DNA of 64,000 nucleotides from a virus, in IMG/VR virus record IMGVR_UViG_3300021964_000018, positions 1 through 64,000 of that record. One strand, 5' to 3'. Under the pieces are notes generated by a model. It was given only the letters and a program-made list of their open reading frames with translations. It searched no databases and had not been told where the DNA came from. This document shows positions 3,825-29,483 of this stretch, piece after piece. Made by a program: the position numbers and the translations under genes. Each line of letters begins with the position of its first letter. The stretch's first letter is position 1.

Positions 3825-4427
3825 ATGACTAAGTTAAACAGATCAGCACTTAAACAACTGATTGTTAAAGAAATGAAAAAAATAATGGATGAAGAAATAA
3901 TTTTTTCAAAAAATGCAGCATTAAATAGAGGAATGTTAGGCAGGCATGACGATCCAAGTCGTCAAGCTATGTATACATCATGTTCAGAATGTGGAAGCAA
4001 AATGTATGAAGGTGAGTCTGTATGTGAACAATGTGGTTCAATGTATGAAGCCGAGTTAAATGAAGGTGATTGCGGTTGTGGAACATGTTCAACATGCGCG
4101 CCGAATAATGCAGACCTAGACTATAATTTTATCCCAGATCACATGCAACATGATCTATTGAACCAATTTCCACAAATGAAGAATATTGAAGTTGAAGTTG
4201 AATATGATGACGATGTCAAGATAGGTAATCATAAAATTTTTAAAGGGTCATACATGGCAAAAAGTCATCTTTATAAAGTACACAAATATGCAGAAAAGCT
4301 TTATCATATGATACCTGATGGGCACAATCTTGAAGATTGGATGAGAACAAAATTAGCACAAATTGCTGATGATATTGGTGAAGTTTATCATGCATTAGAT
4401 CATGACATATTTGAAGGTGATGTATAA
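3825..4427 (+). CDS. Hypothetical Cys-rich protein with shared N-terminal leader; probable head-internal protein
   Basis: Leader MTKLNRSALKQLIVKE; CSECG/CEQCG/CGCGTCSTC clusters; helical C-terminal domain MAKSHLYK...LEDWMRTKLAQ; AGGAG RBS. Confidence 0.55.
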   Translation: MTKLNRSALKQLIVKEMKKIMDEEIIFSKNAALNRGMLGRHDDPSRQAMYTSCSECGSKMYEGESVCEQCGSMYEAELNEGDCGCGTCSTCAPNNADLDYNFIPDHMQHDLLNQFPQMKNIEVEVEYDDDVKIGNHKIFKGSYMAKSHLYKVHKYAEKLYHMIPDGHNLEDWMRTKLAQIADDIGEVYHALDHDIFEGDV

Positions 4428-4428
4428 C

Positions 4429-5721
4429 ATGTTATCTTTGACGTCTCTTTTTAAAGAAACAAAAGAAACGCTGACTGAAGAACAAAAAAAGCACAGGGGT
4501 AGAGCTAACAAGTATATAAAGGATACGTCAGTTTTACCTGAACTTAAATGTCCTGAGGTGGGTAGTATTATTCATGATAGAGACGTCGAGATGATTAAAC
4601 ATTATTTTTATAACAAGTCTCTCTCTGATGATTTTTTAGAGGCAGCTCATGATTCTTGTAAGAAAGTTTTTAAAAAGTTTTGCAAACAAAATAATTATAA
4701 GATCAACTGGGAATTAATAGAAGACGGTCTTAAAGATTCCCATGCTATTATTTTTTCTCTTAAAAATAAGTTTAAAAGACCTAGACCTAAAGAATTATTA
4801 AAAATTGAAGATCCTGAATTTGACAATATTGTTGATATGGATTCTTATTCTTTTCCAAGCGGACACACAACAACAGCATTTTTTATAGCAACAGTATTAT
4901 CTGATGTTTTACCTGAAGAAAAAAATCATTTCAAAACAATGGCAGAATTAATAGGTCAATCTAGGATTGAAAATTGTGTCCATTATCCGACTGACGTCAT
5001 ACACGGTCAATTGTTAGGTGAATTATTAGGTCAGCTATTTTTAAATGAAATTAGTAATAAAAAACATGATATAACTGAAATTAAGCTTAAAAGAAAAGAT
5101 GAAAAAGTTTTATCACAAAAATTAAGAGAAAAAGCGTCAGAATTATATGATGAAAACTTTATCGAAAATTATTGTCATGACATGGCAGAATTTATTCAAA
5201 TCTCTTGTAAAATTGAGCAAATAGATTTGCCTTATAATAAATGTTATGAGGCATGTCATGATTTTATAAGCGGATATCCTTTAAAAGATATCGATAATGA
5301 TCACATCAGATCACATTTACAAATGATGTGCATGGCAAACAAATTAGATGATTTAGATAGCGTATTTTCAATTATTAATCTTCATAAACAACTTGATGAT
5401 AAAATTGTTGACAAAGGAAAACCTGGAATGCTGAGGTATTTTAATCGTGCCTCATCGTATGGAAATGAATATAGCTATCCTAATAATATTTTAGTCGATA
5501 TTCAGAAACTAAAAAAGATTGATAATCCTTATATTAAACATATAGTATATGAATGGATTCATCCATTTTGTGATGGAAATGGAAGGTCTGGTCGAATCAA
5601 GTTATTATTTGATTTAGGAATAGACTTTAGAGCAGTTAATCATTTTTGCGGCAAGGATTATTTAAATATCATACAAAAATTTGTTGACAAATATGAAACA
5701 ATTGATAATGTTTTAAATTAG
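4429..5721 (+). CDS. PAP2-superfamily phosphatase fused to a C-terminal Fic domain
   Basis: All three PAP2 motifs are present (KNKFKRPRP, PSGH, SRIENCVHYPTD), plus the Fic motif HPFCDGNGRSGR. Start placed at ATG 4429, just after the previous stop. Confidence 0.85.
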   Translation: MLSLTSLFKETKETLTEEQKKHRGRANKYIKDTSVLPELKCPEVGSIIHDRDVEMIKHYFYNKSLSDDFLEAAHDSCKKVFKKFCKQNNYKINWELIEDGLKDSHAIIFSLKNKFKRPRPKELLKIEDPEFDNIVDMDSYSFPSGHTTTAFFIATVLSDVLPEEKNHFKTMAELIGQSRIENCVHYPTDVIHGQLLGELLGQLFLNEISNKKHDITEIKLKRKDEKVLSQKLREKASELYDENFIENYCHDMAEFIQISCKIEQIDLPYNKCYEACHDFISGYPLKDIDNDHIRSHLQMMCMANKLDDLDSVFSIINLHKQLDDKIVDKGKPGMLRYFNRASSYGNEYSYPNNILVDIQKLKKIDNPYIKHIVYEWIHPFCDGNGRSGRIKLLFDLGIDFRAVNHFCGKDYLNIIQKFVDKYETIDNVLN

Positions 5722-5728
5722 TATATGC

Positions 5729-5757
5729 GTGTAAATTTTATTAATTTTAGTTATAAT
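5729..5757 (+). promoter_or_regulatory. Sigma70-like promoter
   Basis: GTGTAA-17 nt-TATAAT upstream of the 5782 ORF. Confidence 0.55.
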
Positions 5758-5781
5758 ATAAGCATAACCAAGGTGTAATTT

Positions 5782-6174
5782 ATGGCTAAAATTAAAAGAA
5801 GTATTCTTAAAGATATTAAAAAGGCTGCTCGAGAAATTAAAAAACAAGAAAATAATTCACGAAGCAAACCTCAATATCAGACACAGTTATCTTACGATCA
5901 AAGGCGTCAAATAAGGCAAGAAGCTTTTAATGACCATAAAATTAAAGTAACTTGGAACATACATCCTGGTGATTTGGTTAAAATTAAATCAAATCATTCA
6001 CCGACAGGTAATGTAATATACGGTTTAGTAACGTGGGGTGTGCAAGAAACATTCCAAAGAGCGCCTAGCTTAGGTCATAAGAAGAATTTATCTTGGTATG
6101 ATAATAAAATTAGAGTAATGTCATCCGCTGGTTATCTTTTCTTTCCAGCTAGCGGAATGACTGTAATTAGTTAA
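5782..6174 (+). CDS. Hypothetical protein (basic N-terminus, possible SH3/KOW-like C-terminus)
   Basis: Has an RBS and an upstream promoter; IHPGDLVKIK resembles KOW-like segments. Confidence 0.5.
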   Translation: MAKIKRSILKDIKKAAREIKKQENNSRSKPQYQTQLSYDQRRQIRQEAFNDHKIKVTWNIHPGDLVKIKSNHSPTGNVIYGLVTWGVQETFQRAPSLGHKKNLSWYDNKIRVMSSAGYLFFPASGMTVIS

Positions 6175-6182
6175 GGAGAAAC

Positions 6183-9100: not shown

Positions 9101-9314
9101 AACTCTTCCGAAAACAAACATGTTAATGATTGATGAAGGATTTGGTGCTCTAGATGAAACAAACTTAGAAGCTTGTGGTAAACTTCTTCAATCATTAAAA
9201 AAATGGTTTAAAAATATTCTTATAATTTCTCATATTGATGCAATTAAAGATGTTGTTGATAATACAATTGAAATTATGAAAAATGGAGTTGATTCACGTG
9301 TATATCAAGAATAA
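6183..9314 (+). CDS. Mre11/SbcD nuclease fused to Rad50/SbcC ATPase (gp47-gp46 fusion)
   Basis: Phosphoesterase motifs IADVH, GGDIVH, GNHD, GDIH; Walker A GRNARGKSS; long coiled coil with central CGDRFPSC; signature GSGME; Walker B MLMIDEGFGALD; H-loop IISH. Confidence 0.92.
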   Translation: MRIIHIADVHWRGLSRHEEYILAFKDFFKKAKALNPDIIYIGGDIVHSKTQGISPELIQCLAWWFNEMAKVAPTHVILGNHDGLILNKDRQDAVSPIIKALNNPNIYLYKNSGNYEIPGHPGFYWNVFSCFDEEGWNKVSPIPDNVNIALYHGAAYGSLTDTDWQLEGEISKGIFKGFDFALLGDIHKRQFLNEEKTVAYCGSTIQQNYGETIDKGFLCWDIRGKGDFDVEFHSVQPVHPFYTVEWLGSVEETLDYCENLPRQSKIRVRADNFISQSDTRRLRKLFKKSLNAAEVVYKIDSKFDAEHVVDETNKNAINLRNPDTHKDLLRNYYSSQKFTKDEWQKIDNLVDKYIDQIGGAEDGRNIKWTIDNIGFDNAFSYGKDNYINFKSLPGITGIFGRNARGKSSIIGTIAYALFNTSDRGSIKNLHLINTRYNNCKAEIDITINGIPHRIIRQTVKKVTKKNVWAPTTLKFYRLDKYGEIVEDLTDEQRRETEKIVRSKIGTAEEFMMTSLASQGEMNTFVKEKAAARKLHLSNFLDLGVFDKLYDLVKKDSNETRARANALSGENWQQKIDKSQARIDDYLKKKAFKELDVSENKKRIKELNKAYHKKDTAELIDAKTIKEMQNQLIQIDNQSRKLSQLKGEAEDSISEKEEKIKKIKDFLATIDIDEINKKREAKIKIEKNLAELQGLYNLEKRELEIIEKSVKKLSEVPCGDRFPSCKFIKESHKNKKKLDTQEKKVTLLSVKIDDISETFKVYSNDNLDEKISKYNKLLRRKSELITDVSDVRIKISQYTQNIERLADQYEDKHSEFIKLREKFELQEVDDEVAELLKLIKKEERSLKENENNLTSIIQQLANHKANVKLFQKQKDEYDKANGELKMYDVFAQAVSRRGIPVQIIHSLLPKINAEIAKILNGVVGFVVELEADLDSNAMDIYINYGDSRRIIELGSGMEKMMASLAIRVALINCSTLPKTNMLMIDEGFGALDETNLEACGKLLQSLKKWFKNILIISHIDAIKDVVDNTIEIMKNGVDSRVYQE

Positions 9315-9567: not shown

Positions 9568-9577
9568 GAGTATAATT

Positions 9578-10009: not shown

Positions 10010-11635
10010 TTGGCAAAAGGAACCAAAAGATCGCAAGTTCAAGAAATTATTAAATGTGGAAAAGATCCAAACTATTTTTTTAAGCATTACTTAAAAATTC
10101 AGCACCCAGTAAAAGGTCTTATCCCGTTTGATACATTTCCTTTTCAAGATGATTGTGTTGATCAATTTAATGATCATCGTTTTAATATTGTTTTAAAGTC
10201 TAGACAGTTAGGTTTGTCAACTTTAGTAGCAGCATATTCTGTATGGATGGCAATATTTCAGCGTGAAAAGAATATCCTTATTATTGCGACAAAACTAGCT
10301 GTTGCACAAAACTTTATTATAAAAGTAAAGACAATGATCAGGTCATTACCAAAGTGGTTGTTAATACCTGAGATTATTGCGAATAACAAACAAGTAATTC
10401 AGTTTAATCACGGATCTCAAATAAAGGCAATACCAACCTCAGAAGATGCAGGTCGTTCAGAAGCATTGTCATTACTTATTGTTGATGAGGCAGCTTTCGT
10501 AAGAAACTTTGATACTATTTGGACAGGTATTTATCCGACAATCTCCACCGGTGGGCGTGTTATTATTCTTTCAACTCCAAATGGTGCAGGAGGACAATAT
10601 TATCAATTGTATTCCAAGGCTGAAGCGGGTTTAAATGAATTTAATGCTATAAAACTACCTTGGGAATGTCATCCAGAACGAGATGACGAATGGTTTGAAA
10701 AAACTACTGCAAACATGTCAAAAAAGCAAATTGCGCAAGAGTACCTTTGTGATTTTGCAGCATCAGGCGAAACGTTTTTAGATAATCAGTCTATTGAATG
10801 GTTAAGAACATGTGTACAACCTCCAATAATGAGAGACGGATTTGATAAAAATGTATGGATATGGAAACAACCACTTTCAGAACATGATTATATACTTTCA
10901 GCTGACGTCGCTAGAGGTGATTCAAAAGACTATTCTACATTTCATATAATAGATAATGCAACTAATGAAGTTGTTGCAGAATATAAAGGAAAAATTAGAC
11001 CTGATAACTTTGCTGATTTAATTAATGAATTCGGACTTCGTTATAATAAAGCATTAGTTTGTCCGGAAAATAATAGCTACGGTTTTGCCACAATTCTTAA
11101 ACTATTAGAAATGAATTACCCAAGAATGTATTACAGAAAAAAGAAAAATTCTGTTTATTTAGGTTCTTATGTTCCCAAGTCTTCTGCAGACTCTGCAGGT
11201 TTCAATACTAACGGAAAGACAAGAGGCACTATTTTAGCTAAACTTGAAGAGGTTATAAGAAACAAACAATTAATATGTTATTCTTCACGCTTTTATGAAG
11301 AACTTAAAGTTTTTACATGGCAAAGTGGTAGAGCGCAAGCAAAGAGAGGTTTTAATGATGACCTGGTAATGAGCCTTGCAATTGGTTCATGGTTATTTGA
11401 TGCATCTACTGATTATAGCAAATCTTCTCGTGCAATTAATGATGCGATGTTAAGTGCATTTAGTGTAAGAAAAAACGAATACAATGATACGCCAAATGCA
11501 GTCTTAGAAGATGTTTCTTCACTTCCACCTTTTATGCCATCTGGGCGTGGTGATAGAAATAATATAAAACAAAATATTAAAGATACATTAAAACGCAGTA
11601 ATATACCTAAAGATATGCTATGGGTAATTAAATAA
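10010..11635 (+). CDS. terL: Terminase large subunit (T4 gp17-like)
   Basis: Walker A KSRQLGLST, Walker B LLIVDEAAF, STPNG coupling motif, nuclease motifs ADVARG...DYS and DDLVMSLAI. Confidence 0.95.
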   Translation: MAKGTKRSQVQEIIKCGKDPNYFFKHYLKIQHPVKGLIPFDTFPFQDDCVDQFNDHRFNIVLKSRQLGLSTLVAAYSVWMAIFQREKNILIIATKLAVAQNFIIKVKTMIRSLPKWLLIPEIIANNKQVIQFNHGSQIKAIPTSEDAGRSEALSLLIVDEAAFVRNFDTIWTGIYPTISTGGRVIILSTPNGAGGQYYQLYSKAEAGLNEFNAIKLPWECHPERDDEWFEKTTANMSKKQIAQEYLCDFAASGETFLDNQSIEWLRTCVQPPIMRDGFDKNVWIWKQPLSEHDYILSADVARGDSKDYSTFHIIDNATNEVVAEYKGKIRPDNFADLINEFGLRYNKALVCPENNSYGFATILKLLEMNYPRMYYRKKKNSVYLGSYVPKSSADSAGFNTNGKTRGTILAKLEEVIRNKQLICYSSRFYEELKVFTWQSGRAQAKRGFNDDLVMSLAIGSWLFDASTDYSKSSRAINDAMLSAFSVRKNEYNDTPNAVLEDVSSLPPFMPSGRGDRNNIKQNIKDTLKRSNIPKDMLWVIK

Positions 11636-14594: not shown

Positions 14595-15194
14595 ATGCAA
14601 TTACTCAGAGAATGGTGTGCTTTTAACATTACCAAAGAAATGATCAACGAGTCCAGAGATCGAAATGGTGGAAAGTTAATACTAAAAGGTCCGATCCAAA
14701 AGTCAAATACTCTTAATCAAAATGGAAGAATATATCCTAAAAACATTTTAGAAAGAGAGATTATGAATTATCAAAAGCTAATTCAAGAAAATAGAGCAAT
14801 GGGTGAATGTGATCATCCAGATTCTTCTGTTGTTGAGCTTAAAAATGTTTCTCACGTTGTGAAGGAAGCCTATATGCAAGGTGATATAGTTTATGGAGCA
14901 ATAGAGATATTAGATACACCATCAGGTAAAATTATTCAATCATTAATTGAAAGTGGTGTGACGCTAGGAATATCTTCTCGTGGAGTAGGATCAACACAAA
15001 AACAAGGAAATACACAAATCGTCCAAGATGATTTTCAATTAATTTGTTTTGATATGGTATCAGAACCTTCTACGCCAGGTGCTTTTGTTATGAAAGAAGG
15101 TAAAGAAATTTCTAAAAAAGAGCTTAATAAATTCTTTAACAAAACAGACAGAATTGATAGAATTTTTAATGATATTATTCGGTGGGATAAATGA
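14595..15194 (+). CDS. Prohead maturation protease (T4 gp21-like)
   Basis: NQNGRIYP, GECDHP, VSH, LDTPSG, GISSRGVGS, DMVSEPSTPGA. Confidence 0.95.
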   Translation: MQLLREWCAFNITKEMINESRDRNGGKLILKGPIQKSNTLNQNGRIYPKNILEREIMNYQKLIQENRAMGECDHPDSSVVELKNVSHVVKEAYMQGDIVYGAIEILDTPSGKIIQSLIESGVTLGISSRGVGSTQKQGNTQIVQDDFQLICFDMVSEPSTPGAFVMKEGKEISKKELNKFFNKTDRIDRIFNDIIRWDK

Positions 15195-15652
15195 GCAAAA
15201 TAACAAAAAACGATCTTAAAGGCATTGTAAAAGAATGTTTAATAGAAATTCTTGCAGAAGGATTAATATCAAGCAATTCAAGATTATCAGAAGGCAGTCA
15301 AAAAAGAAACTCAAGAAAACAAGAACTTAAGTCTGAAATTATGAGAAGGCCTGCTTTAGATACTATATCATATGCTAAAAATCAACAACCTGCAGCAATA
15401 GAAAAAAGGCCTGCTCCAAGAATTAATACAAGTATTTCAGATGACCCAATCTTAAATGAAATATTCGCAGATACAGCTGCTTCTACACTTCAAGAACAAT
15501 TAGCAGCAGAAAATAGAAAAGGACACACTGCAGCGAATGTGTCTGTTCAAGGCGATCAGGCAGCAAAAATAGTGGCAGCAAGTAACCCAGAAGATCTTTT
15601 TGGTGAATCCGCATCCAGGTGGTCAAGATTGGCATTTTCTGATCAAAAATAA
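15191..15652 (+). CDS. Hypothetical head-module protein with shared leader
   Basis: MSKITKNDLKGIVKECLIEILAE; translationally coupled to the protease gene. Confidence 0.6.
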   Translation: MSKITKNDLKGIVKECLIEILAEGLISSNSRLSEGSQKRNSRKQELKSEIMRRPALDTISYAKNQQPAAIEKRPAPRINTSISDDPILNEIFADTAASTLQEQLAAENRKGHTAANVSVQGDQAAKIVAASNPEDLFGESASRWSRLAFSDQK

Positions 15653-15751: not shown

Positions 15752-16012
15752 ATGTCAAATAGAAGAATTAGAAAACTAACACCTCAGCTGATTAAACGAT
15801 TAATTGCTGAAGAAAAGCAAAAGATTGCCGATTCTAAAAAGAGACAAGCTCGTAAAAAGAAAAATTTAAGTGAAGCAAAAGTTAAAAAAATTAAAAAGCA
15901 AATCAAAGTATTAAATGAAACAAAAGAAATGCAGAAAGAGTTGGTTTTAAAATTTAAGAAGTTGTATCAGTTGAGACAAAAAATCAAAAATAATCTTATT
16001 AAGAGGGTATAA
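15752..16012 (+). CDS. Small basic coiled-coil protein with leader-like N-terminus
   Basis: AAGGAG RBS before ATG 15752; MSNRRIRKLTPQLIKRLIAEE. Confidence 0.6.
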   Translation: MSNRRIRKLTPQLIKRLIAEEKQKIADSKKRQARKKKNLSEAKVKKIKKQIKVLNETKEMQKELVLKFKKLYQLRQKIKNNLIKRV

Positions 16013-17140: not shown

Positions 17141-17168
17141 AAATTAAATTTTGCACGAGGAACAATAT

Positions 17169-18632
17169 ATGTCAAAATTATTTGAAGAAGCTTTAGCAGA
17201 CGCCAAAAGATTAAAGGAAGTCGCTGAAGAAAATGCAAAGAAAGCAATTTTAGAATCGATTACACCTAAAATTAAAAGTTTTATTGATCAGCAGATCATT
17301 GAACAAACTGAGCCTGAAATTGAAGAGGTTGAAGCTGAAGAGGAAGAAGAGGCAAACGAATATGCTAATTTGGACGAAGATTCAATTACATCTTTAATGG
17401 AAATGTTAGGTGTCAAAAAGAATATTGCAGAATCTAATATTAAATCTGCAGTTAATAAAATGAGTCATCAACAACGTAAAAACCTTAGTGAGGCAGCAAA
17501 AAAAGCTAACTCTGATGATAAATTGACACGTAATGAAATAAATAATCAATATAGAAATTTACTTGAGGAGATATCAATGAATAAAGAACGTTATTACGAA
17601 GTTGACTTAAAGGCACTTCGTGAAGCTGTTGAAAAAGAAGCAGATGACATTGCTGCTAAAGAAGAATTAAAACACGAAATGAGTGATCTTTACGAAGAGG
17701 AAGAAGGATCCCATGAAGAAGGTTATGGTCTTGATGAAGAAGAAATCGACAAAGAAGCCATGGATCATCTTATAAATGAAATCAAGCTTGCTCTTGACTT
17801 AGGCGAAGATATCGAAGAAGATATGATTCCTGAGGAACTTAGAGGAATGATCATAGATGACGAAGATGAATCTGACGAAGAACTTGACATGGAAGATTCT
17901 GAAGAAGAGAGTGAAGAAGAAGGAGAGGAGGGCATTGAAGACATGCTTCCACCCCTTGAAGGCGAAGAAGGTGAAGATGCTGAGCCTGCACCTCTTGAAG
18001 AAGTTTTTGAAGTAGATCCTAATATGCTTCGTCAAGAATTAAGAAATATTAGAAATATGTTAAGTGAAGGAAAAGTTGATCATCATTTTGGTGGAAAAGG
18101 TGAATCTAATGCAGGTCATGCTAATGCATTTGGTGGAAAAGGTGCTAAAAAACTTGGACATCAAAAATCATTTGGTGGCGGAGCTCCTGGAAAGGATGTA
18201 TTTGTTAATCCACCCGCTTCACTTAAGAAATTAAACGAAAATATTCGCAATCTGAGACGTCAAAATCGAGCTCAGCAAGAGAAACTGAATAAATACAGAG
18301 GTGCAGTTCAAACACTTCGTGAGCAGTTGGAAGATCTCAACCTATTTAATGCAAAGTTGCTCTACGTAAATAAACTTTTACAGAACAATACTTTGTCTGA
18401 ATCTCAAAAGAAATCAGTTATCAAAGCATTGGACGAAGCAAAAAGTTTGAGTGAAACTAAGTCATTATACACATCACTTACTGAATCTCTATCAGTTTCA
18501 GCATCAAAGAAAACTTTGAGTGAATCAACTAGATTCGGTAGTTCTTCAAGAACAACAACTTCAGCTTCTACACATTCAGATAAAACCGTTGGTGAGTCTG
18601 ATCGTTGGGCAAAGTTGGCTGGTCTTAAATAA
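17169..18632 (+). CDS. Prohead scaffolding/core protein (gp22-like role)
   Basis: Very acidic and coiled-coil; immediately upstream of the MCP; NLFNAKLLYVNKL and terminal RWAKLAGLK; many L-x-E sites; GAGG RBS before ATG 17169. Confidence 0.8.
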   Translation: MSKLFEEALADAKRLKEVAEENAKKAILESITPKIKSFIDQQIIEQTEPEIEEVEAEEEEEANEYANLDEDSITSLMEMLGVKKNIAESNIKSAVNKMSHQQRKNLSEAAKKANSDDKLTRNEINNQYRNLLEEISMNKERYYEVDLKALREAVEKEADDIAAKEELKHEMSDLYEEEEGSHEEGYGLDEEEIDKEAMDHLINEIKLALDLGEDIEEDMIPEELRGMIIDDEDESDEELDMEDSEEESEEEGEEGIEDMLPPLEGEEGEDAEPAPLEEVFEVDPNMLRQELRNIRNMLSEGKVDHHFGGKGESNAGHANAFGGKGAKKLGHQKSFGGGAPGKDVFVNPPASLKKLNENIRNLRRQNRAQQEKLNKYRGAVQTLREQLEDLNLFNAKLLYVNKLLQNNTLSESQKKSVIKALDEAKSLSETKSLYTSLTESLSVSASKKTLSESTRFGSSSRTTTSASTHSDKTVGESDRWAKLAGLK

Positions 18633-18673: not shown

Positions 18674-20590
18674 ATGTCTAGATCATTTAGTTTAAATCAA
18701 CTGACAGAAGGAATTAGAGAACGCCACTTAGGCGCTGATTCTTCTCGTCTTGTGTCCAAGTGGACACGTACAGGTCTTCTTCGAGGACTTCAAGAAAACA
18801 ACCGCGAAAACATGGCTCGCATGCTTGAAAACCAAGCGTCTCAGCTCCTTCGCGAAGCAAACACTTTAGGTAGCGGTGGATCTGCTGGAAACATTGATGG
18901 TTTTACCAATATCGCTTTTCCAATCGTTCGTCGAGTATTCGGTGGATTGGTAGCAAACGAATTAGTTTCTATTCAACCTATGTCTTTACCTTCCGGACTT
19001 CTTTTCTATCTTGATTATTCATATGGAGCAGATGTTGGTGGTGATGGAACTGGTGATGGAAACACAGATGCTACTTATGCTTCAACTTACAATAGAGGTG
19101 ATTCTCTTTATGGAAATCCTGGTGGTTCTAGTATCCGTACTGGTGCATCTGCAGTTGGTGGTCAATATGATCTTGCAGGTTCAGGATATTCAAAAGTTCA
19201 CGGAACTTATAAATTGAATGAAGGTTTGGCTCATATTGGTAAATTTGGAACCGGTGCTTCTCAATCAGGTGCAAATGGTGTAGCTGGTGTAGAAGGTGCT
19301 GACGGTAAATTACTACAATTTGACCCACAGATCATCAAAAGAATTAATGATGGCGACGCAGAATATGCATTCTTGGTTGCTTCAGCTTCAGTTCTTGTTG
19401 AAGATGCTGCAACTGGACGTTCATTAGACCCAACACAAGTTAAGCAAATTGCTTTATTTAGTGCTCTTGGCACTACAAATGGATTTACAGTACCTCCTGC
19501 TACTGTTCAAGGTGGAAGCAATGTATTGAACGTTCGTCGCCTTAATCAGTTAGGTACTATGGCAGGTGCACAGGACGCAATTACATTCACTCCTGATCCT
19601 CTTAAAGCACTTACTGATCTTGACGCAGGTATTCTTTTTGTAATGGAACTTGCTGATGGCGCAACTCCTGACGCGGATGCCGCTGGATTGGCAGCTGTAA
19701 CTAATCTTACTGCTTCTTTCCCAGTTGCTGATTCAGTATCAGCTGAAGGTGGAACTGGTGGAACTCTTGTTATTCCAAGCTTTGAGTCAGATTTTGCAGC
19801 TTCTCCAAGCCCAGTTATTCCTGAGATTGATATTAAGATTGAGTCTATCGCGGTAACAGCGACCACACGTAAGTTAAGAGCTCGTTGGTCTCCAGAACTT
19901 GCGCAAGATCTTAATGCTTATCACTCAATGGATGCTGAAGTTGAATTGACTCAGATTCTTTCTGAGCAGATTGCACTTGAGATCGATCGTGAGATTCTTA
20001 ATGATCTTCTTACAGAAGCAAAAGCAGCTAACTACTACTGGTCACGTGCTCCTGGTAAATTCGTTAAGAAGGATACTGGTGTCGTTGCATCTAGCACTAT
20101 TGGACCTAATTTCACGGGTACAGTTCGCGAATGGTACGAAACTCTTGTTGAAACCATTATCGACGTTGCTAACGAAATTCACAGAAAGACTCTTCGTGGA
20201 GCAGCTAACTTTATCGTGGTTTCACCTGAAGTAGCTACTATCTTCGAAGCTTCAGTTCTTTACAAGCCTTCTATCAAGATTGATGGACAAGGACAAGTTG
20301 GAACTCCTTTCTCTATCGGTGCAGAAGCTATTGGATCTCTTTCAAATCGCTTTACGGTTTACAAAGATCCTTACTTCCCACGCAACAAGATCCTTGTAGG
20401 ATACAAAGGTGGATCATATCTTGAGTCTGGATACGTCTATGCTCCTTATGTACCACTCATCGTTACTCCTACAATCTTCGCTCCTGAAGATTTCACACCA
20501 AGAAAAGGTGTAATGACTCGTTACGGTAAGAAAATGGTACGTGCCGATTTCTACGGAACAGTTACATGCCTTGACATGGACGTGATCTAA
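18674..20590 (+). CDS. Major capsid protein (T4 gp23-like) with a large internal insertion
   Basis: FPIVRRVF, VSIQPMSLPSGLLFYL, TRKLRARWSPELAQDLNAYH, EIDREIL, YAPYVPL, FTPRKGVMTRYG; propeptide ending LLRE/A. Confidence 0.97.
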   Translation: MSRSFSLNQLTEGIRERHLGADSSRLVSKWTRTGLLRGLQENNRENMARMLENQASQLLREANTLGSGGSAGNIDGFTNIAFPIVRRVFGGLVANELVSIQPMSLPSGLLFYLDYSYGADVGGDGTGDGNTDATYASTYNRGDSLYGNPGGSSIRTGASAVGGQYDLAGSGYSKVHGTYKLNEGLAHIGKFGTGASQSGANGVAGVEGADGKLLQFDPQIIKRINDGDAEYAFLVASASVLVEDAATGRSLDPTQVKQIALFSALGTTNGFTVPPATVQGGSNVLNVRRLNQLGTMAGAQDAITFTPDPLKALTDLDAGILFVMELADGATPDADAAGLAAVTNLTASFPVADSVSAEGGTGGTLVIPSFESDFAASPSPVIPEIDIKIESIAVTATTRKLRARWSPELAQDLNAYHSMDAEVELTQILSEQIALEIDREILNDLLTEAKAANYYWSRAPGKFVKKDTGVVASSTIGPNFTGTVREWYETLVETIIDVANEIHRKTLRGAANFIVVSPEVATIFEASVLYKPSIKIDGQGQVGTPFSIGAEAIGSLSNRFTVYKDPYFPRNKILVGYKGGSYLESGYVYAPYVPLIVTPTIFAPEDFTPRKGVMTRYGKKMVRADFYGTVTCLDMDVI

Positions 20591-20613: not shown

Positions 20614-20639
20614 AAGGCGACCTTTTGGTCGCCTTTTTT
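20614..20639 (+). terminator. Rho-independent terminator after the MCP gene
   Basis: AAGGCGACC-TTTT-GGTCGCCTT followed by a T run. Confidence 0.9.
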
Positions 20640-21604: not shown

Positions 21605-22051
21605 ATGAAATTAAATAGGAATTCACTAAGAAAAATGATTTTAAACGAAATTAGGAACTTACAAGAAGGTAGGTATACTAGCTCTGGACCTAATCTTAGC
21701 CAACTTTTTGGCCATCTGTGGGGCAGAAGATTCGATTGGAATTTTGTTACAAATGCTTCAATCCAAAGTGCTATGAAAATGTCCGGGATGGATGCTATGA
21801 CATTTTTTGAAACTGTTAAAGCTGTTGGTCATGAATGGCAATTGAAAAAAGTTGCTGAAGCATTATCAGAAGTTGATACAAACTTTTATGATTATGCAAA
21901 AAGAGAATTAGGAACACAACTTTTCCATGATACGCCAGGAAGCAAGATAAGATTACCAAAACTTACAAAAAGCACATCACCCTTAGCAGATGATGAATTT
22001 GACTTTGATGACGACGATGATGATGTTTATCCAGGTCCTTTAGTACCTTAG
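21605..22051 (+). CDS. Hypothetical protein with shared leader and acidic tail
   Basis: AAGGAG RBS; MKLNRNSLRKMILNEIRNLQE/G. Confidence 0.6.
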   Translation: MKLNRNSLRKMILNEIRNLQEGRYTSSGPNLSQLFGHLWGRRFDWNFVTNASIQSAMKMSGMDAMTFFETVKAVGHEWQLKKVAEALSEVDTNFYDYAKRELGTQLFHDTPGSKIRLPKLTKSTSPLADDEFDFDDDDDDVYPGPLVP

Positions 22052-22386
22052 GAAAAATCACGCCATGCATGTGGTTTTCTTGTTTTAAGATAACCTAAAT
22101 TTTTTTGATGCGTATATGCTTCTTTCTCAAATGGAATGGCATAATACGCATCAGCTCCGTTCAAACCTTTAAATCTTGCTTTAAGCCAATACCATATATA
22201 AAGAAGGTAAAAACCAACCACCCAGAGTTCTCTCTGTTGAACGAGGTGAATCTTTTCGTGGTTATATATAGTAATATCAAGCTGTTCTTTTGCAATAATA
22301 AACGGGTATAACGTAATCGCATAAACATCAATAAAAAGGCTCATTGCTTTGCAAAAACGTGGGCTAATAATTACTTTAGGTTTCAT
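22048..22386 (-). CDS. Small HExxH putative zinc metallopeptidase-like membrane protein
   Basis: NHEKIH, hydrophobic helix, FEKEAY; AGGAG RBS on the minus strand. Confidence 0.6.
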   Translation of the reverse strand: MKPKVIISPRFCKAMSLFIDVYAITLYPFIIAKEQLDITIYNHEKIHLVQQRELWVVGFYLLYIWYWLKARFKGLNGADAYYAIPFEKEAYTHQKNLGYLKTRKPHAWRDFS

Positions 22387-23315
22387 TACATTCTCCTTTT
22401 ATATGGGTATTTAGGTCTAAGTGTATCAACCGCAAATCGACCACCCCTATTTGGGTCTTGAAGATATTGCAATGTTTTATAAAGGACTTCCATTGTCATT
22501 CCAATATCAGCAGTTGCTTCATGCCATGACTCATTATCAATTTCAAATGCTGTCGCCATCATACCAAGCCGGCTAGCAAGATAAGGTTTCCCTTTATAAG
22601 ATAGTGCCGTAATGCTGTCAATGATGTGTTTATCTTCAGCATTCATTTCAGCTTCATTTTTTTGTACATATTGCAGTACAGCTTTTAGATAATTATCAAT
22701 AATTGCAATTGAATCCATCACAGCAATATCTGGTGCGTTTAAACCACCTCTTTGATAAAAAAGATTTGTCATTTTTGCATCAAATGGAGAATTGTGGGCC
22801 CAAAAGACCAGCTTACCTGTTGGGCTGGCAGTTTTTTGTGCTTGTATATATTGATTAAACATTTCAGCACCATCTGCTTGATTAACGCGCGGTACATCTT
22901 CTCCGCCATAATAATCATTCATGTCTAAAAGACCTGGAATCGAGTATTTAGGATCGCCTTTATAAGTTCCTGCGTCTAGCTGTGCTTGTTGATTTTTTAT
23001 TTCAGCTTCTGTGTCTGGTGTTAAGACTATTTTAACATTGAACATTCCGTCGTTTACAGGAGAAGGTATTTGGTCGAGATTATTTGTTTTGTATGCTATG
23101 GCTGCCAGTTGAGTTATTTGAACAAAATTTGGAACTGATCCGTCTTTATTTGGTAGACCTGTTGTTTCTGTGTCGAAGAAAACCCAGTTATGTTGTGCAA
23201 GTTCTTTAAGCTTTTTAATCATTTCAGAGAACTGAGGAGGATAAAAACTAGGATCGACTGATCTTTCGTTTAGGAATTTGCGCCATTCTGTCAAGATTTG
23301 TTTCATGTTATTCAT
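22386..23315 (-). CDS. DEDDh (DnaQ-like) 3'-5' exonuclease with N-terminal leader
   Basis: ExoI FFDTETTG, ExoII AHNSPFD, ExoIII WHEATAD; leader MKQILTEWRKFLNE. Confidence 0.85.
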   Translation of the reverse strand: MNNMKQILTEWRKFLNERSVDPSFYPPQFSEMIKKLKELAQHNWVFFDTETTGLPNKDGSVPNFVQITQLAAIAYKTNNLDQIPSPVNDGMFNVKIVLTPDTEAEIKNQQAQLDAGTYKGDPKYSIPGLLDMNDYYGGEDVPRVNQADGAEMFNQYIQAQKTASPTGKLVFWAHNSPFDAKMTNLFYQRGGLNAPDIAVMDSIAIIDNYLKAVLQYVQKNEAEMNAEDKHIIDSITALSYKGKPYLASRLGMMATAFEIDNESWHEATADIGMTMEVLYKTLQYLQDPNRGGRFAVDTLRPKYPYKRRM

Positions 23316-23704: not shown

Positions 23705-24172
23705 ATGCCAACAATTATAGTAGATAATAAAAAAGGTCTATTTCAAAAAGCAGCTACCACAGCAAATCCAGCAGGAACATTAGCAGGTCATAAATCAGTT
23801 GTTAAAACTGTTAACGGTGGCTTAGCTAATCAAACATTGTCTCAAGAAGACAGTGGAAAAATCTTTCTTGTCGGAGGAGACGCAGGACCTATTACATTTC
23901 CAGTAGGCGAAGCCGGATGGGAAGGAACTTTTGTTGCAACAGGATCATTTCATGCAGCATTGGTAATATCAGGAGCAGCAGCTGCTACAACATCTGGTGT
24001 TACAGTCGTAGGACAAGAATTAGGTGCAGATGCAAGTACTGATGCCATTGCAATTACTGCAGGTGTTGGTGCAACTTTTGGAACATCAGCTGTAACTGCA
24101 GGTGACACATTAAAGGTAAAAGTTTTAAAAGCTAATTCTTTAATTTTAATGGAATCAAGAACTGCAACTTAA
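23705..24172 (+). CDS. Putative capsid decoration/structural protein
   Basis: Strong AAGGAGG RBS, its own late motif and terminator; Ala/Gly/Thr-rich; TLSQEDSGKIFLV motif. Confidence 0.5.
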   Translation: MPTIIVDNKKGLFQKAATTANPAGTLAGHKSVVKTVNGGLANQTLSQEDSGKIFLVGGDAGPITFPVGEAGWEGTFVATGSFHAALVISGAAAATTSGVTVVGQELGADASTDAIAITAGVGATFGTSAVTAGDTLKVKVLKANSLILMESRTAT

Positions 24173-24195
24173 TCGGCTTGAAATGACTTGAAATT

Positions 24196-24223
24196 AAGGC
24201 ATCCATCTCGGGTGTCTTTTTTT
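24196..24223 (+). terminator. Rho-independent terminator
   Basis: AAGGCATCC-ATCTC-GGGTGTCTT followed by a T run. Confidence 0.8.
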
Positions 24224-24313
24224 ATGTTTGCAAGAAGCTACTGCTTAGTTTATGTGATACTTTAAGGCATTAGGTGATAATTATTAAGGACATATATTTT
24301 GGAGGTTACAGAG

Positions 24314-24655
24314 ATGTCTCAGTTAAACAGAAAGCAGTTAAAAAGAATGCTCTTAAAAGAATTTAAAATGATGGGAATGGCACCTATGGGTGCAGCAATG
24401 ATAGGACATTCTCCATATCAAAACCCGCATGGGTGTGATGCATGTGGCAAGTCTCCTTGTGAGTGTGATGAATACGAAGATCATGGTGATCATAGCATGC
24501 AATCATCACATGTTGATTATGTAGGTGGTCATAAAGGACAAGTTTCAAAAGAAGATTGCTGCAAGGCTGTTCTTTGCCTCATTGAATGTTGTGATTGTCC
24601 GGAAACTAAGGCATTGATTCGAGAATGCTGTGAAGATATTCTTTCTCGTTGTTAA
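24314..24655 (+). CDS. Cys/His-rich (metallothionein-like) protein with shared leader
   Basis: GGAGG RBS before ATG 24314; MSQLNRKQLKRMLLKE; CDACGKSPCEC, CCKAVLCLIECCDC, CCEDILSRC. Confidence 0.6.
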   Translation: MSQLNRKQLKRMLLKEFKMMGMAPMGAAMIGHSPYQNPHGCDACGKSPCECDEYEDHGDHSMQSSHVDYVGGHKGQVSKEDCCKAVLCLIECCDCPETKALIRECCEDILSRC

Positions 24656-24663
24656 TTTTATAA

Positions 24664-25887
24664 ATGGAATTAACCGAGGCACAACTTCGTTTTTTAATTC
24701 GTGAGGTTATACGCAAAGTAAAGGGTGGGTGGAAAGTTTACCCTAAAAAACCTCGCAAGGGAGAGAAGCGTCGTCGTGCTTTGTCAAAAAAACCTTTAAG
24801 TTATAAACGTGCATTGGCACAACTTCGTGCAATTGAAAGAGGAAAAAGTTTAAAGGAAGGTCGTGAACATACAATAGTATCCGGCGATTATCTTGGTAAG
24901 ATAGCGAAAAAATATGGCGTAACAACTAGTCAGATTCAAAAAGCAAATCCTGATTTAAATCCTAATTCATTACAGCTAGGTCAAAAAATAATAATTCCTG
25001 ATGCTTTAAAGCGATTAAATAAAGATTTAAAACCTAGTAAAAAATTAATTGACTGGATGAAATACGAAGAAGGAAAAGTTAATAGATTAGGAGTGGCCAC
25101 GGGAGAACCTTATCTTGAATCTTATGATGACGGTGTAGGAAACTTGACAATAGGTTACGGTCGCAATCAAAAAAGTCAAAGAAAACAAACAATAGATACG
25201 GGTTATGCAGAAAATTTACTTAAATCTGATTTGAGCGATGCTGCTTCCTTATTGCAACAGTCAACTAAAGATTCTGTTAGCGAAAAAATAACAATTCCTT
25301 TTAAGTTAGATCAAAATCAATTTGATGCATTAACTAGTATAATTTTTAATGCAGGTAGAGGCGGATATATTAAGACGGGTTTACATCAAAAATTTATTAG
25401 TAAAGGAATAACATCAGGCAGTGAGTTTGAAAAAGCCTTTTTAGAAGCTAGAACTAGTAAAAAACTAGGTGGTTTAAAAGGAAGAAGAAAAAGAGAATTA
25501 GAAATATTTAAAAACAATAATTATCTTAACAAAAAAGATGATGAAAAAAGTGTTTTAAAAGAAGGTGATCCAAAAGTAGGAACAGGTAAAAAACCAAAAG
25601 GATCAGGTCGAAGGTTGTATACAGACGAAAATCCTAAAGATACAGTTCCAGTAAAGTTTAGAACGGCTTCAGATATTAGAAAGACATTTTCGCAAAAAAG
25701 TTTTAAATCAAAATCACATAATAGGCAGTCTCAAATAATTAATTTGGTGCATCAAAGGGTTCGAGCAGCATATCAAAATGCTAAAGATCCGGATACAAAA
25801 AAGAGATTGAAAAAAGCATATGATTATGCAAAAAAACGAAAAGCAGCTAGCAAAAAGAAAACTCAAAGAATGAGAAAGAAAAAATGA
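24664..25887 (+). CDS. Multidomain protein: leader + small basic domain + LysM + GH24 lysozyme + basic C-terminal domain
   Basis: LysM HTIVSGDYLGKIAKKYGVT...ANPDLNPNSLQLGQKIIIP; lysozyme YEEG...DDGVGNLTIGYG...NQFDALTSIIFNAG...RRKRE. Confidence 0.85.
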   Translation: MELTEAQLRFLIREVIRKVKGGWKVYPKKPRKGEKRRRALSKKPLSYKRALAQLRAIERGKSLKEGREHTIVSGDYLGKIAKKYGVTTSQIQKANPDLNPNSLQLGQKIIIPDALKRLNKDLKPSKKLIDWMKYEEGKVNRLGVATGEPYLESYDDGVGNLTIGYGRNQKSQRKQTIDTGYAENLLKSDLSDAASLLQQSTKDSVSEKITIPFKLDQNQFDALTSIIFNAGRGGYIKTGLHQKFISKGITSGSEFEKAFLEARTSKKLGGLKGRRKRELEIFKNNNYLNKKDDEKSVLKEGDPKVGTGKKPKGSGRRLYTDENPKDTVPVKFRTASDIRKTFSQKSFKSKSHNRQSQIINLVHQRVRAAYQNAKDPDTKKRLKKAYDYAKKRKAASKKKTQRMRKKK

Positions 25888-27017
25888 AAATTACAAAAAA
25901 ACAATTAAATTTACTTGCTGAGTCTGTTATTCTTGACTCAAAAAAAGAAGATACGATAGAAGATCTGGTTGAAAAAAGATTATCAATACAAGAAAAAAGA
26001 ATCCAGTTGTTAAAAGAAGGATATAATCTAGAATTGATAAAAGAGTTTAACGTTCAAGTGTCCGGTCCTAGAATCGAAACAGATGATATAACAGTTGAAG
26101 CTGGCAATGTGTCGATAGAGACAAATTTTGGAAAATGGGCAACTTACCTAGGCATAACAAAAGCAGTTTGTGCAACTGCAGTTCATATTGCATTGATATC
26201 TGCAGGCTGGGAAGGCGTATTAGCAATATTAATACCTGTTGCAATTCCTGTTTTAACTAGCCCAGTTATTATGGGTTCAATTGCATTGTTTTTATCTCGT
26301 TATTCGTTTTTTAGAAAAATAGCAGGATTTTTATTTAAAATGCTAATAGGAAAAAAGAATTATCAAAGAATTAACAATATGATAGATAACATAACTAATA
26401 TTATGATGAGTTCAACTGATAATGCAATTGAAAAGAAAGATGCATTAACTTTGTTTGTACAATCAGCCGGTTATGTTTTAGGACAACCAGAATTTAGAAA
26501 AAAATTAAAAGAATTGGCATATGCTTACATGTCAAGAAATAAAGAAAAAGTTAAACAAATCATGTCTGAATTAGATGTGATGGTTAGAAGTTTTGCACCA
26601 AGCCAATCTTCTTTAACTTTAGATGTTAAAGAAGACGAATTAACATTACCAGATAATTCACCTAAGCATGATGATATTGAAAATTTAGAAGCTGAATTAG
26701 ATAAGTCTGAACTAATACAAGAAAAAAGAAAGAGTAAAAAGAAAAAGGTTGATTATAAAAAATCCTATAAGAAATATCATAGTTCAAAAAAAGCTAAGCG
26801 AGAACGTGCACAAAGAAACGCAGCTGGACGAAAGATTAAAAATGAATTAGGGATAGAAATACCAAAGGGATATGAAATTGATCATAAAACAGCTATAGCG
26901 CACGGCGGATCTAACGATTTATCAAACTTAAGAATTATTCCTCGCAGCAAAAATAGGGCATTAGGCCAAAAAATAACAACTCGAAAAAGAAAAAAGAACG
27001 GGAGCTATAAAAAGTGA
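25884..27017 (+). CDS. Leader-bearing protein with hydrophobic segments and C-terminal HNH nuclease domain
   Basis: MKITKKQLNLLAE; central TM-like stretch; YEIDHKTAIAHGGSNDLSNLRIIPRSKN. Confidence 0.7.
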   Translation: MKITKKQLNLLAESVILDSKKEDTIEDLVEKRLSIQEKRIQLLKEGYNLELIKEFNVQVSGPRIETDDITVEAGNVSIETNFGKWATYLGITKAVCATAVHIALISAGWEGVLAILIPVAIPVLTSPVIMGSIALFLSRYSFFRKIAGFLFKMLIGKKNYQRINNMIDNITNIMMSSTDNAIEKKDALTLFVQSAGYVLGQPEFRKKLKELAYAYMSRNKEKVKQIMSELDVMVRSFAPSQSSLTLDVKEDELTLPDNSPKHDDIENLEAELDKSELIQEKRKSKKKKVDYKKSYKKYHSSKKAKRERAQRNAAGRKIKNELGIEIPKGYEIDHKTAIAHGGSNDLSNLRIIPRSKNRALGQKITTRKRKKNGSYKK

Positions 27018-28153
27018 AATTATCTATAAGTAAATTAAGGCAATTAATTCGAGAAAGTTTGGAAAAAAGAATCGCTTTTGCTAACGATATGATTAAATTA
27101 GGATTAACTCCGGAAGAAGCAGAAAAAAAAGGTGTTTTTAACATAAATCAGTTCGGAATGCCAGGGAAAAAAGAATTATCACCTTCAGGAAAATCTTTAT
27201 TTGATGATAAAAAAGCAATATATGCAACTAAAGATGTTGAAAAAGAAACAACTTATATGGGAAAACCTTATAAATACATTGAATCTGAAGAAGCGTTATT
27301 TATGGGTGCGATGGAAGCAATTAGAGCTGCGACTAAAAGAGGTAAAATGATGAAGCAGCTTTTTAGAAAATATGTTGATCCCAACTTTATGAATCAATTA
27401 ATTTTAATTCATTATGCTTCACCTGACCAGGTTTTAAAAAATATTAAGGCACAAAAAGGTAATTATGAATTAAGTTCTGTTGCATTAGCCCCTGAAGATT
27501 TTACCAAAAATAAAATCCAAGTGTTAAAAACAGCAATGATTTTAGATGGACATATAACTTATTTTGCAAACAATCAAGATGACGTATATTCTGGAAAAGG
27601 TTCTGACTATGTTCAGGCATTTTCTTCTCAAAAGGGATATGAACCATGGATCGAAGGTAATCCTGATCTGCTAGACTGGGAAGATGAAGTGATAGAACGT
27701 GGAAGAGCTGAAAGGCCCTACGCAGGAACAGATAGAACTAAATCATCGGGTGTTAATAAAACAGTTGTTAATATTAGAGGTGTAGAGAGATTTAAATCTC
27801 CTGCAATGTCCAGGTCAAATTATTTGCAAGATCCGGGTTTCGAACATTTTAAACAAGCTCCTGATGCACCTCGAGGTGTACCTCAAACTTCACGTGGCGA
27901 ACCACCTGTTGTTTTAGACAAAGAAGACTATTTGCCTAGATTTGATCAAGCAGCCGGCTCAGATTCAGCAATACCTGGAAATGAAGCGTTAGTTGATAAT
28001 TGGTCTGTGAAAGCAATTATTTTAAATCATGGTAAAGAAAACGAAAAATATGAAAAAATGTTTCGTGATGCAGGATATCAAGGACAGATAATGACATTTG
28101 ACGAAGCAGTTGCACAAAAATCATTATTAATAAATAAAGGACATAAAAGATGA
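27014..28153 (+). CDS. Hypothetical protein with shared leader
   Basis: GTG start overlapping the upstream stop; MKLSISKLRQLIRE. Confidence 0.6.
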   Translation: MKLSISKLRQLIRESLEKRIAFANDMIKLGLTPEEAEKKGVFNINQFGMPGKKELSPSGKSLFDDKKAIYATKDVEKETTYMGKPYKYIESEEALFMGAMEAIRAATKRGKMMKQLFRKYVDPNFMNQLILIHYASPDQVLKNIKAQKGNYELSSVALAPEDFTKNKIQVLKTAMILDGHITYFANNQDDVYSGKGSDYVQAFSSQKGYEPWIEGNPDLLDWEDEVIERGRAERPYAGTDRTKSSGVNKTVVNIRGVERFKSPAMSRSNYLQDPGFEHFKQAPDAPRGVPQTSRGEPPVVLDKEDYLPRFDQAAGSDSAIPGNEALVDNWSVKAIILNHGKENEKYEKMFRDAGYQGQIMTFDEAVAQKSLLINKGHKR

Positions 28154-28824
28154 AAATAACAAGAAGTGCATTAAGAAAAATAATTTTAGAAGTTGTTGTT
28201 GCAAGTAATGATACTAAAGAAAAAGTAGAAGATTTAGAAAAAAGTATTAAACAGGACAACCCAGAAGCGTCTGACGAAGATATTGATGATGCAATTAATA
28301 AATTAACAAAAAAACAAATGCAGGAAGAGCTTAAGCGTTTGTCTTATGTAAGCAAAGAACAAGGCCATACATACGGACTAGAACATCTACCTGATCAATA
28401 TGACCAAAAGAAAGCAGATGATATCATAGGACACACCTGACTGACTCATGTTCGGAAGAAGGGTTCTTCTTTAAATGAAGTTGGTTATGTTCTTTGGCAC
28501 TCTTTAAATGAAAGCGGTCACGTTGCTGTTTACGATGTTGAATGGCCTGATGGGACGATTGAAAGAAATATACCTGCACGTCTTTTAGAAAAAGTAAAAG
28601 ACAGCAATGATAATGTTGACGAACATGATGAACATGGTGTCGTTGGTCATGAAGAAGAATCGTTATTAGGTGAAAGAAAATACAAGAAAAGAAAAGGTAA
28701 AAAGAAAAAGAAAGCATCAAAGAAAAAGCCTAAGTATTGGTATTTAGGTGGTTATGGGATAGACCATGATCATGATTTTGCCGATTTTGGCGGCGACTTT
28801 GGTGGTGATGGAGGCGGAGAATGA
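28150..28824 (+). CDS. Putative selenoprotein (224 aa; UGA at codon 97 recoded as Sec) with shared leader
   Basis: The frame stays open for 127 codons after TGA 28438-28440 (GHT-U-LTHVRKKG...WHSLNESGHVAVYDVEWPDGTIERNIPARLLE...). It ends at TGA 28822-28824, which overlaps the next ATG (ATGA coupling). A SECIS-like hairpin follows the UGA. Confidence 0.75.
28441..28484 (+). promoter_or_regulatory. Bacterial-type SECIS-like stem-loop
   Basis: CTGACT/AGTTGG and CAT/ATG lower stem, internal loop, GGAAGAA/TTCTTCT upper stem, G-only apical loop 20 nt after the UGA. Confidence 0.7.
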
Positions 28825-29483
28825 AAATAAAAAGAAAAGATCTCAACATGTTAATTGAAAGATTCCTAAATGAAGAAGGAACAGATCCTAAAGGTGAAAC
28901 AGTTGATGATGTATTGTCTGATGAGTTGGAGCAAACAGAAGTTGGTGATACTTTTATGGCTAATCAAATGAGACAACATGGCGGTAGGCAGCCAATGAGT
29001 CCTGAGAAAAGAGCACAAGCAATCACAGATTTTAGGAAAGGCAGTGATCGAGGACAATTTCCTCCTTTAACATTTGGGCCAGGCGTTGACGAAGAAGGAA
29101 ATTTGGAAGGTGATAAATTTACAACTGTTCATGATTACCATGATCCGGATCCTTATGATCAAGCTGCTGTTAGAAGATATAAAAAACAACATTATTTAGG
29201 ACCGAATGAAAAGTCTGTTGATGACCCTGAAATTACAATGCAAGGTCTAGGCGACTTTGATTTTGATGATGAAGATACTGAAGAAGATTTAAGATATCAG
29301 GAACAAGAATTTTTTCAAGACGATGAAGATACAGAAGATTCGTATGAAGTTGAAGGCCCTAGTGTAATTACTTATGAAGACGAAGAAGGCGGAGAAAGAA
29401 CGTTTATAGACGATGAAGAAGTAACGCCTGGTTATAATAAAGGAATAATTAGCAGGTTGCGAGATTATTTTTCAAAAAAATAG
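28821..29483 (+). CDS. Very acidic, probably disordered protein with shared leader
   Basis: MKIKRKDLNMLIERFLNE/E; D/E-rich. Confidence 0.6.
   Translation: MKIKRKDLNMLIERFLNEEGTDPKGETVDDVLSDELEQTEVGDTFMANQMRQHGGRQPMSPEKRAQAITDFRKGSDRGQFPPLTFGPGVDEEGNLEGDKFTTVHDYHDPDPYDQAAVRRYKKQHYLGPNEKSVDDPEITMQGLGDFDFDDEDTEEDLRYQEQEFFQDDEDTEDSYEVEGPSVITYEDEEGGERTFIDDEEVTPGYNKGIISRLRDYFSKK

Follow-up and report, generated by a model that had tools for sequence, protein, structure and literature searches.

A shared N-terminal leader on unrelated proteins of an uncultured marine jumbo phage: a probable capsid-targeting tag with its prototype in a head-core protein

The contig IMGVR_UViG_3300021964_000018 (141,038 bp, estimated to be 54% complete, GC content about 32%) derives from an uncultured marine jumbo phage with a T4-type head. 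Its first 64 kb (64,000 nucleotides, hereafter the window) encode a series of otherwise unrelated proteins that begin with the same short basic peptide, which we will refer to as the leader. This shared leader is real, and its consensus, M-K-[LI]-[TN]-[RK]-x-x-L-[RK]-x-[LI]-[IL]-x-E, comprises 14 residues. The reading that we favour, and regard as rather probable, is that the leader acts as a T4-like capsid-targeting and cleavage tag, which was recruited from a core protein of the head and greatly expanded. A preliminary description of the window had interpreted the leader as a packaging tag, and this interpretation is partly supported by the N-terminal position of the leader, its [LIVM]-x-E end, an intact S77 protease, an L-x-E site in the major capsid protein (MCP), the match of the leader to the N-terminal helix of a conserved head-core protein and an island of leader cassettes.

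In bacteriophage T4, a capsid-targeting sequence (CTS) is found on the internal proteins IPI, IPII, IPIII and Alt and is removed by the prohead protease gp21 (PMC9026906, PMC3012670), which cuts after L/I-x-E (PMC9026906). These internal proteins form a diverse set of defence proteins with the CTS as their only conserved feature, and the ip loci of T-even phages are polymorphic (PMC3012670).

All N-termini quoted in the preliminary description occur in the sequence where it had placed them, and a Shine-Dalgarno-like AGGAG or GGAG box precedes most of the open reading frames (ORFs) concerned. A position-specific scoring matrix (PSSM) of 13 residues was built from 20 leaders and used to scan all six frames of the 141-kb contig. 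The scan yielded 20 matches of at least 19.9 bits, each starting at residue 3-4 of an ORF and directly following M-K (or M-T-K, M-S-Q, M-E), while shuffled proteomes are expected to contain 0.01 matches of this strength; one other comparable match on the contig lies at the C-terminus of an ORF at 139695. When each leader was left out of the matrix in turn, 18 of the 20 still reached at least 11.8 bits (shuffles: 0.39 matches of at least 12 bits per proteome). Likewise, a minimal core of seven residues is enriched 14.4-fold in the first 25 residues (19 of 3800 positions versus 14 of 40445, p = 1.3e-12). Eight strong leaders lie inside the window (at 3825, 21605, 24314, 24664, 25884, 27014, 28150 and 28821, all of them listed in the preliminary description) and 12 in the remainder of the contig, which has a dense cluster of them at 122-128 kb. 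In all 22 leaders examined the Glu of [LIVM]-x-E ends at residues 13-20, most often at residue 14.

Past residue 22, the 24 carriers compared have no mutual BLASTP similarity, save for one marginal match in a Gly/Pro linker (E = 0.006). Nor is the leader conserved as DNA: Leu, Arg and Lys codons differ throughout, so the leader is conserved at the protein level only, and explanations at the DNA level (recent duplication, a recombination hotspot or an mRNA element) can be rejected on the same grounds. A Sec or Tat signal peptide was also ruled out, on account of the leader's charge and amphipathic character and its lack of a hydrophobic core.

Two further proteins of the preliminary list, encoded at 15191..15652 and 15752..16012 (both plus strand), score about 5.6 bits with the PSSM of the cargo leaders. 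Rather than variable cargo, these two are conserved proteins of the head core, which form a class related to, but distinct from, the cargo. The first (153 aa) belongs to a family whose gene directly follows the protease gene, between the protease and scaffold genes, in 47 related loci, a count which is a lower bound (at least 47 related phages). The N-terminus of this family, with the consensus x-K-L-T-R-x-x-L-K-x-I-V-K-E-C-L, is by far its most conserved part. In the protein of the window the N-terminal helix contains three successive [IVL]-x-E sites (residues 15, 19 and 23), and AF2, run with the family alignment, predicts a helix at residues 6-29 (pLDDT about 90) followed by some 55 disordered residues. 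The second core protein is small (86 aa) and very basic, and its residues 9-21 form a leader-like segment with I-A-E at its end. Positional orthologues with the same motif occur in the related loci L013, L014, L085 and L068, a similar segment is present in every relative inspected, and the PSSM matches in L010, L045 and L055 land on a gene of this type.

An independent test that avoids circularity was provided by a PSSM trained only on N-termini of the 15191 family from 23 other phages. On the contig, nine of the ten matches that rank next after the 15191 protein itself are N-terminal leaders, and 12 matches reach at least 8 bits versus 1.22 in shuffles. Because this core-only matrix, the predicted helix and the segment in the 15752 protein agree, the cargo leader can be understood as a copy of what would be the docking end of the core proteins; judged by these comparisons, the leader has its prototype in the N-terminus of the 15191 family. 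In T4, the CTS likewise resembles the N-termini of gp22, gp24 and gp67, which are short peptides ending in L/I-x-E, as read from T4 DNA.

The enzyme that is presumed to remove the leader is encoded immediately ahead of the first core protein. The ORF at 14595..15194 (plus strand) is a homologue of T4 gp21 and of Peptidase_S77 (PF03420, E = 3e-26; phrog_207, E = 1.4e-52), as the preliminary description had stated, and is 30% identical to T4 gp21 (E = 2e-22). Its His74 and Ser127 align with the catalytic positions, and the same His and Ser are mutated in the crystal structure PDB 5jbl. Its own N-terminus has L-R-E at residue 6, as T4 gp21 has L-I-E at residue 9. In every relative inspected, the MCP of the gp23 family (18674..20590, plus strand; Pfam Gp23, E = 3.6e-76) has retained L-[RK]-E at residue 61. 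The site precedes a conserved P-I-V-R-R by 25-35 residues and occupies a position that corresponds to the T4 gp23 cut, and a maturation cut after Glu61 (L-R-E, window base 18856) is predicted. Directly upstream of the MCP gene, an acidic coiled-coil protein (17151..18632, plus strand) without Pfam or PHROG match is presumed, from its position, composition and many [LI]-x-E sites, to be a scaffold of the gp22 type and is a candidate partner for the basic leader. Both the scaffold-like and the core proteins are rich in [LI]-x-E sites. The protease and MCP genes form part of a T4-type head module recognised by Pfam and PHROG searches, which also includes the large terminase (10010-11635) and the gp20 portal (11646-13739). 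Further downstream follows a gp13-like head-tail adaptor (29582..30739, plus strand; phrog_211, E = 3.5e-9), which is conserved in relatives, and with it the sheath and tube genes.

The preliminary description had placed most leader genes between the capsid and neck genes. Within the window seven of them do lie between the MCP and adaptor genes, but 12 of the 20 strong leaders are outside the window. Among relatives, the interval between the two genes can be as short as 204 bp and devoid of genes, and extends to about 9 kb in the window; depending on the lineage, 0, 1, 2-3 or 7 leader genes lie in it. It is a hypervariable island of leader cassettes, with the adaptor gene as its downstream edge. 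One terminator-like hairpin follows the MCP gene (20614..20635, plus strand) and another directly precedes the array of leader genes at 24314-29483 (24196..24218, plus strand), for which reason this array looks like one operon. Alignments of orthologues show that the leader and a C-terminal module are constant and that the inserts between them differ. For example, the very basic C-terminal 111 residues of the 24664 protein are 86% identical to a protein of 129 aa in L013, where the module directly follows the leader, and the counterpart of the 25884 protein in L013 (116 aa) consists of the leader plus an HNH domain only. From these alignments, modules such as a LysM-lysozyme or a hydrophobic segment plus HNH are read as having been swapped or introduced behind a leader that stayed constant. 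On the 257-kb contig of a distant relative, whose MCP is 62% identical, at least 11 ORFs, which are clustered, carry a dialect of the leader peculiar to that phage. The consensus has K-L/I-T in the present contig and R-I/V-T in the relative G003, a hint that it may vary together with the N-terminus of the 15191 orthologue, although the difference is confounded by GC content.

The leader genes of the window are all encoded on the plus strand. The one outside the head module (3825..4427; 26.5 bits at residue 4) adjoins the primase gene and encodes a Cys-rich protein of 200 aa with a weak zinc-ribbon match (Pfam Zn_Ribbon_1, E = 0.0016), whose orthologue in the relative G001 (locus L092) retains the leader. 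The ORF directly 3' of this gene, which overlaps its end (4402-5721, 439 aa), encodes both a PAP2 phosphatase domain (E = 1.3e-16) and a Fic/DOC domain (E = 4.2e-6). Inside the island, 21605..22051 (27.7 bits) encodes a protein of 148 aa whose sole family match is a weak one to phrog_528, and 24314..24655 (27.0 bits) a very Cys-rich protein of 113 aa with leader-bearing orthologues in L013 (77% identity) and L014 (44%). The product of 24664..25887 (407 aa, 28.2 bits) consists of the leader, a basic linker, LysM (E = 4.6e-13), a phage lysozyme domain (Phage_lysozyme, E = 2.3e-16) and the very basic conserved C-terminal module. That of 25884..27017 (377 aa, 21.1 bits) has an insert of about 250 aa with hydrophobic segments behind the leader, then a basic stretch and an HNH or endonuclease VII-like domain (phrog_4590, E = 2.4e-18; phrog_1035, endonuclease VII, E = 3.2e-6; Pfam HNH, E = 0.0017). 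Several long hydrophobic stretches of this insert (residues about 80-175) resemble transmembrane helices and may recall the SPN3US ejection protein gp47. The gene at 27014..28153 (GTG start, 23.6 bits) encodes 379 aa without Pfam or PHROG family match, and that at 28821..29483 (24.1 bits) an acidic protein of 220 aa with a leader-bearing orthologue in L013 (61% identical).

A leader of 31.9 bits belongs to the gene at 28150..28440, which encodes 96 aa up to an in-frame TGA. The frame remains open past this codon to 28824, for about 127 more codons and up to the ATG of the next gene. Since both the TGA and the protein sequence downstream of it are conserved in L013 (17312-18540; MCP 70% identical), the codon appears to be read through or recoded; if it is recoded, the product may have about 224 aa and is a candidate selenoprotein. 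Most cargos have no domain recognisable with Pfam or PHROG, and no match above the Pfam curated cut-offs was obtained for ten leader proteins encoded outside the window. As regards the attached domains named in the preliminary description, the lysozyme, the HNH nuclease and the Cys-rich proteins carry strong leaders, but the DEDDh exonuclease is not a secure cargo, because neither of the two 'variant' leaders of that description is significant.

The first of these variants is the exonuclease itself (22386..23315, minus strand; RNase_T, E = 5.9e-5; phrog_192, E = 2.7e-11), which scores -10.7 bits with the PSSM. Its N-terminus does fit the minimal core pattern and may be a divergent short form of the leader, W-R-K-F-L-x-E; in Flavobacterium phage immuto, a similar W-x-K-F-L-K-E motif opens the ORF that follows the protease gene. 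The second is a protein of 717 aa without family match (53277..55430, plus strand), which at 1.5 bits is not a member. In G001 the corresponding position is taken by a leader protein, but the two proteins are unrelated, which rules out orthology. The 130-aa basic protein at 5782..6174 (plus strand), absent from the preliminary list, has a possible, weak leader-like N-terminus, with 15.0 bits in the matrix from other phages' core proteins and 0.8 bits in that of the cargo leaders.

How such a leader might work is best seen by comparison with T4, where the CTS of the internal proteins and its removal by gp21 were reportedly described by Mullaney and Black in 1996. In T4, processing is prevented when the Glu is exchanged for Asp. 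As in T4, a short N-terminal peptide ending in L/I-x-E is the sole common feature of unrelated proteins, a gp20 portal, a gp23 MCP and a protease of the gp21 family are encoded, similar peptides stand at the start of core and scaffold proteins of the phage itself, and the cargo set varies among relatives. Unlike the T4 CTS, the leader has about 14 instead of 10 residues, is present on at least 20 proteins in half a genome instead of about four, and is derived from or shared with a conserved core protein that lacks a detectable T4 counterpart. Hypervariability, with the leader kept and the bodies swapped, is a trait that the MCP-adaptor interval and the cluster at 122-128 kb share with the ip loci of T-even phages. 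Differences from those loci are the up to seven cassettes per island plus other clusters, the insertion of domains inside leader proteins and the position of the island within the head-neck block.

A second comparison is offered by phiKZ, 201phi2-1 and SPN3US, whose head and ejection proteins carry propeptides that mostly exceed 100 residues and are cleaved at S/A-x-E (PMC5694885, PMC9026906). These, too, are jumbo phages with many head-internal proteins that are cut after Glu by a gp21-related protease, a trait which is proposed for the present phage as well. SPN3US gp53 and gp54 likewise have conserved N-termini; theirs, however, occur on diverged paralogues, and those described here on unrelated carriers. 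The conserved part of the leader is also far shorter than the long propeptides (about 14-20 residues) and ends in a different motif, [LIVM]-x-E.

We infer core binding, cleavage, retention in the head and injection, which could take the following course. The basic amphipathic N-terminal helix of about 14 residues would dock a newly made protein onto the core of the assembling prohead, its partner probably being the acidic scaffold or core, and the shell would then close around the core. The gp21-type serine protease would cut after the Glu of [LIVM]-x-E and free the mature protein inside the head, where the freed proteins would remain with the DNA and some, at the least, would enter the host upon infection. 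Such a tag would be portable, as the cassettes in the MCP-adaptor interval and in the other clusters, which differ among related phages, suggest.

Several observations weigh against this proposal. The leader bears a net positive charge (+2 to +5), in contrast to the slightly acidic T4 CTS, and has no sequence homology to it. Among 50,697 phage records, none contains a homologue of the 15191 family (tblastn against cultured phages gave spurious tape-measure matches only), and profile comparison with T4 gp67 and gp68 by hhalign gave probabilities of 0.2% and 0.1%, i.e. no homology. Since the leader is thus unrelated to the CTS, gp67 and gp68 and differs in length and charge, it would be a peptide that works like the CTS but is not homologous to it. 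The [LIVM]-x-E motif is short and built into the definition of the leader, so that its presence is not independent evidence of cleavage. At least 20 cargo species per head, some of them of 400-900 aa, would go far beyond the T4 precedent. Many leader genes are located far from the head module, and one stands beside the primase gene. Finally, no late-promoter signal was found in scans with the T4 late and sigma-70 consensus sequences, and the 'late-type motifs' of the preliminary description did not hold: the T4 late promoter TATAAATA is not enriched (five occurrences on the plus and six on the minus strand, none positioned for a leader gene), and sigma-70-like sites occur at chance frequency (36 found versus 34.8 expected).

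The location of the genes also bears on an alternative, in our view unlikely, according to which the leader is a general amphipathic helix that serves in oligomerisation, membrane or DNA association or partner binding in the cell, is not cleaved, has nothing to do with the capsid and resembles the core proteins through exon-like shuffling. Over half of the leader genes are indeed outside the head module, the leader has a basic character and moderate amphipathicity (its mean hydrophobic moment is about 0.4 versus a background of 0.25), and leader-like motifs stand at two C-termini, those of the ORFs at 133008 and 139695. A generic helix, however, does not explain the strict placement at residues 1-14, Met start included, nor the Glu within [LIVM]-x-E in every member. 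It also leaves unaccounted for why this helix should be better conserved than any other part of a protein whose gene stands between those of the protease and the scaffold, and why cassettes have built up between the MCP and adaptor genes.

The identity of the prototype carriers gives some weight to another alternative, which we nevertheless consider improbable, namely that the leader loads proteins into the prohead core as assembly accessories (core or scaffold components, size determinants or DNA-condensing proteins) that are degraded, expelled, or kept but not injected. The 15191 and 15752 proteins are conserved core proteins, several cargos have very basic low-complexity tails that look DNA-binding, and an enzymatic domain is not recognisable in most cargos. 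Yet the cargos turn over rapidly among close relatives, which is unusual for assembly factors and typical of host-interaction genes, and the host or DNA would be the more natural targets of a LysM-lysozyme and an HNH nuclease. That the leader is instead a recognition sequence for a modifying enzyme, in the manner of ribosomally synthesised and post-translationally modified peptides (RiPPs), whose logic of one leader for many substrates it shares, is very improbable: no radical-SAM domain (PF04055) was found in the 141-kb contig, which is an estimated 54% complete, while the control genomes all matched, no enzyme gene recurs beside the leader clusters of this genome, G001 and G003, and the only enzyme gene that consistently adjoins a leader carrier is that of the prohead protease.

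Some further features of the contig and its relatives adjoin the leader genes or resemble the leader. The two leader-like C-termini belong to the ORFs 139695-140975 (19.8 bits) and 133008-133232 (14.3 bits), both outside the window. T4 Alt and gp21 are processed at the C-terminus too, and by analogy these motifs could be C-terminal targeting or cleavage segments. In the otherwise plus-strand head block, the exonuclease gene forms a minus-strand pair with 22048-22386, which encodes a small protein matching phrog_15610 ('protease', E = 6.6e-25), and the pair is kept in L013 and L014. Homologues of 23705-24172, a protein of about 150 aa with the conserved N-terminus M-P-K-V-x-Y-T-x-x-K-G-L-V-Q and no family match, are the only gene nearly always found between the MCP and adaptor genes in related loci; this protein could serve in head decoration or head completion. 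In the distant relative G003 (222001-236000, L087), at least five leaderless tandem paralogues of 160-180 aa with the N-terminus M-x-x-Y-T-L-I-[DN]-P adjoin a cluster of leader genes. Downstream of the adaptor gene, two adjacent very large ORFs (32662-35793 and 35828-39235; 1043 and 1135 aa) have near-identical N-termini, and the first matches the tail sheath family phrog_23 (E = 1.9e-60), which suggests duplicated and enlarged sheath genes.

A megablast search with 20 kb of the window against the 50,697 phage records gave no match, and the best cultured match of the MCP, in Flavobacterium phage immuto, is 45% identical; that phage has a single weak leader match. In IMG/VR, at least 598 loci have a related MCP. 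With so many related loci and no close cultured relative, the clade is large and uncultured. For this globally distributed clade as a whole we can offer, more tentatively than for the leader itself, the possibility that the helix of a core protein serves as a portable address label, by which the product of any gene that gains it would enter the head, and that cassette islands provide every phage with 20-40 pre-made proteins (wall hydrolases, nucleases and proteins without recognisable function), which would be delivered with the DNA as an arsenal for counter-defence and take-over an order of magnitude above that of T4.

If the leader is a capsid-targeting tag, the head-internal and probably injected proteome of an abundant clade of uncultured ocean phages could be read from sequence alone, and dozens of uncharacterised proteins would be flagged as candidates for host take-over or anti-defence in the first minute of infection. 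It would illustrate the origin of a targeting tag as a copy of a core protein's docking helix, and the diversification of a cargo repertoire through cassette islands and the insertion of domains behind a fixed leader. It would also provide a second, unrelated capsid-loading peptide with which phage engineering in the laboratory could package foreign proteins into heads of the T4 type.

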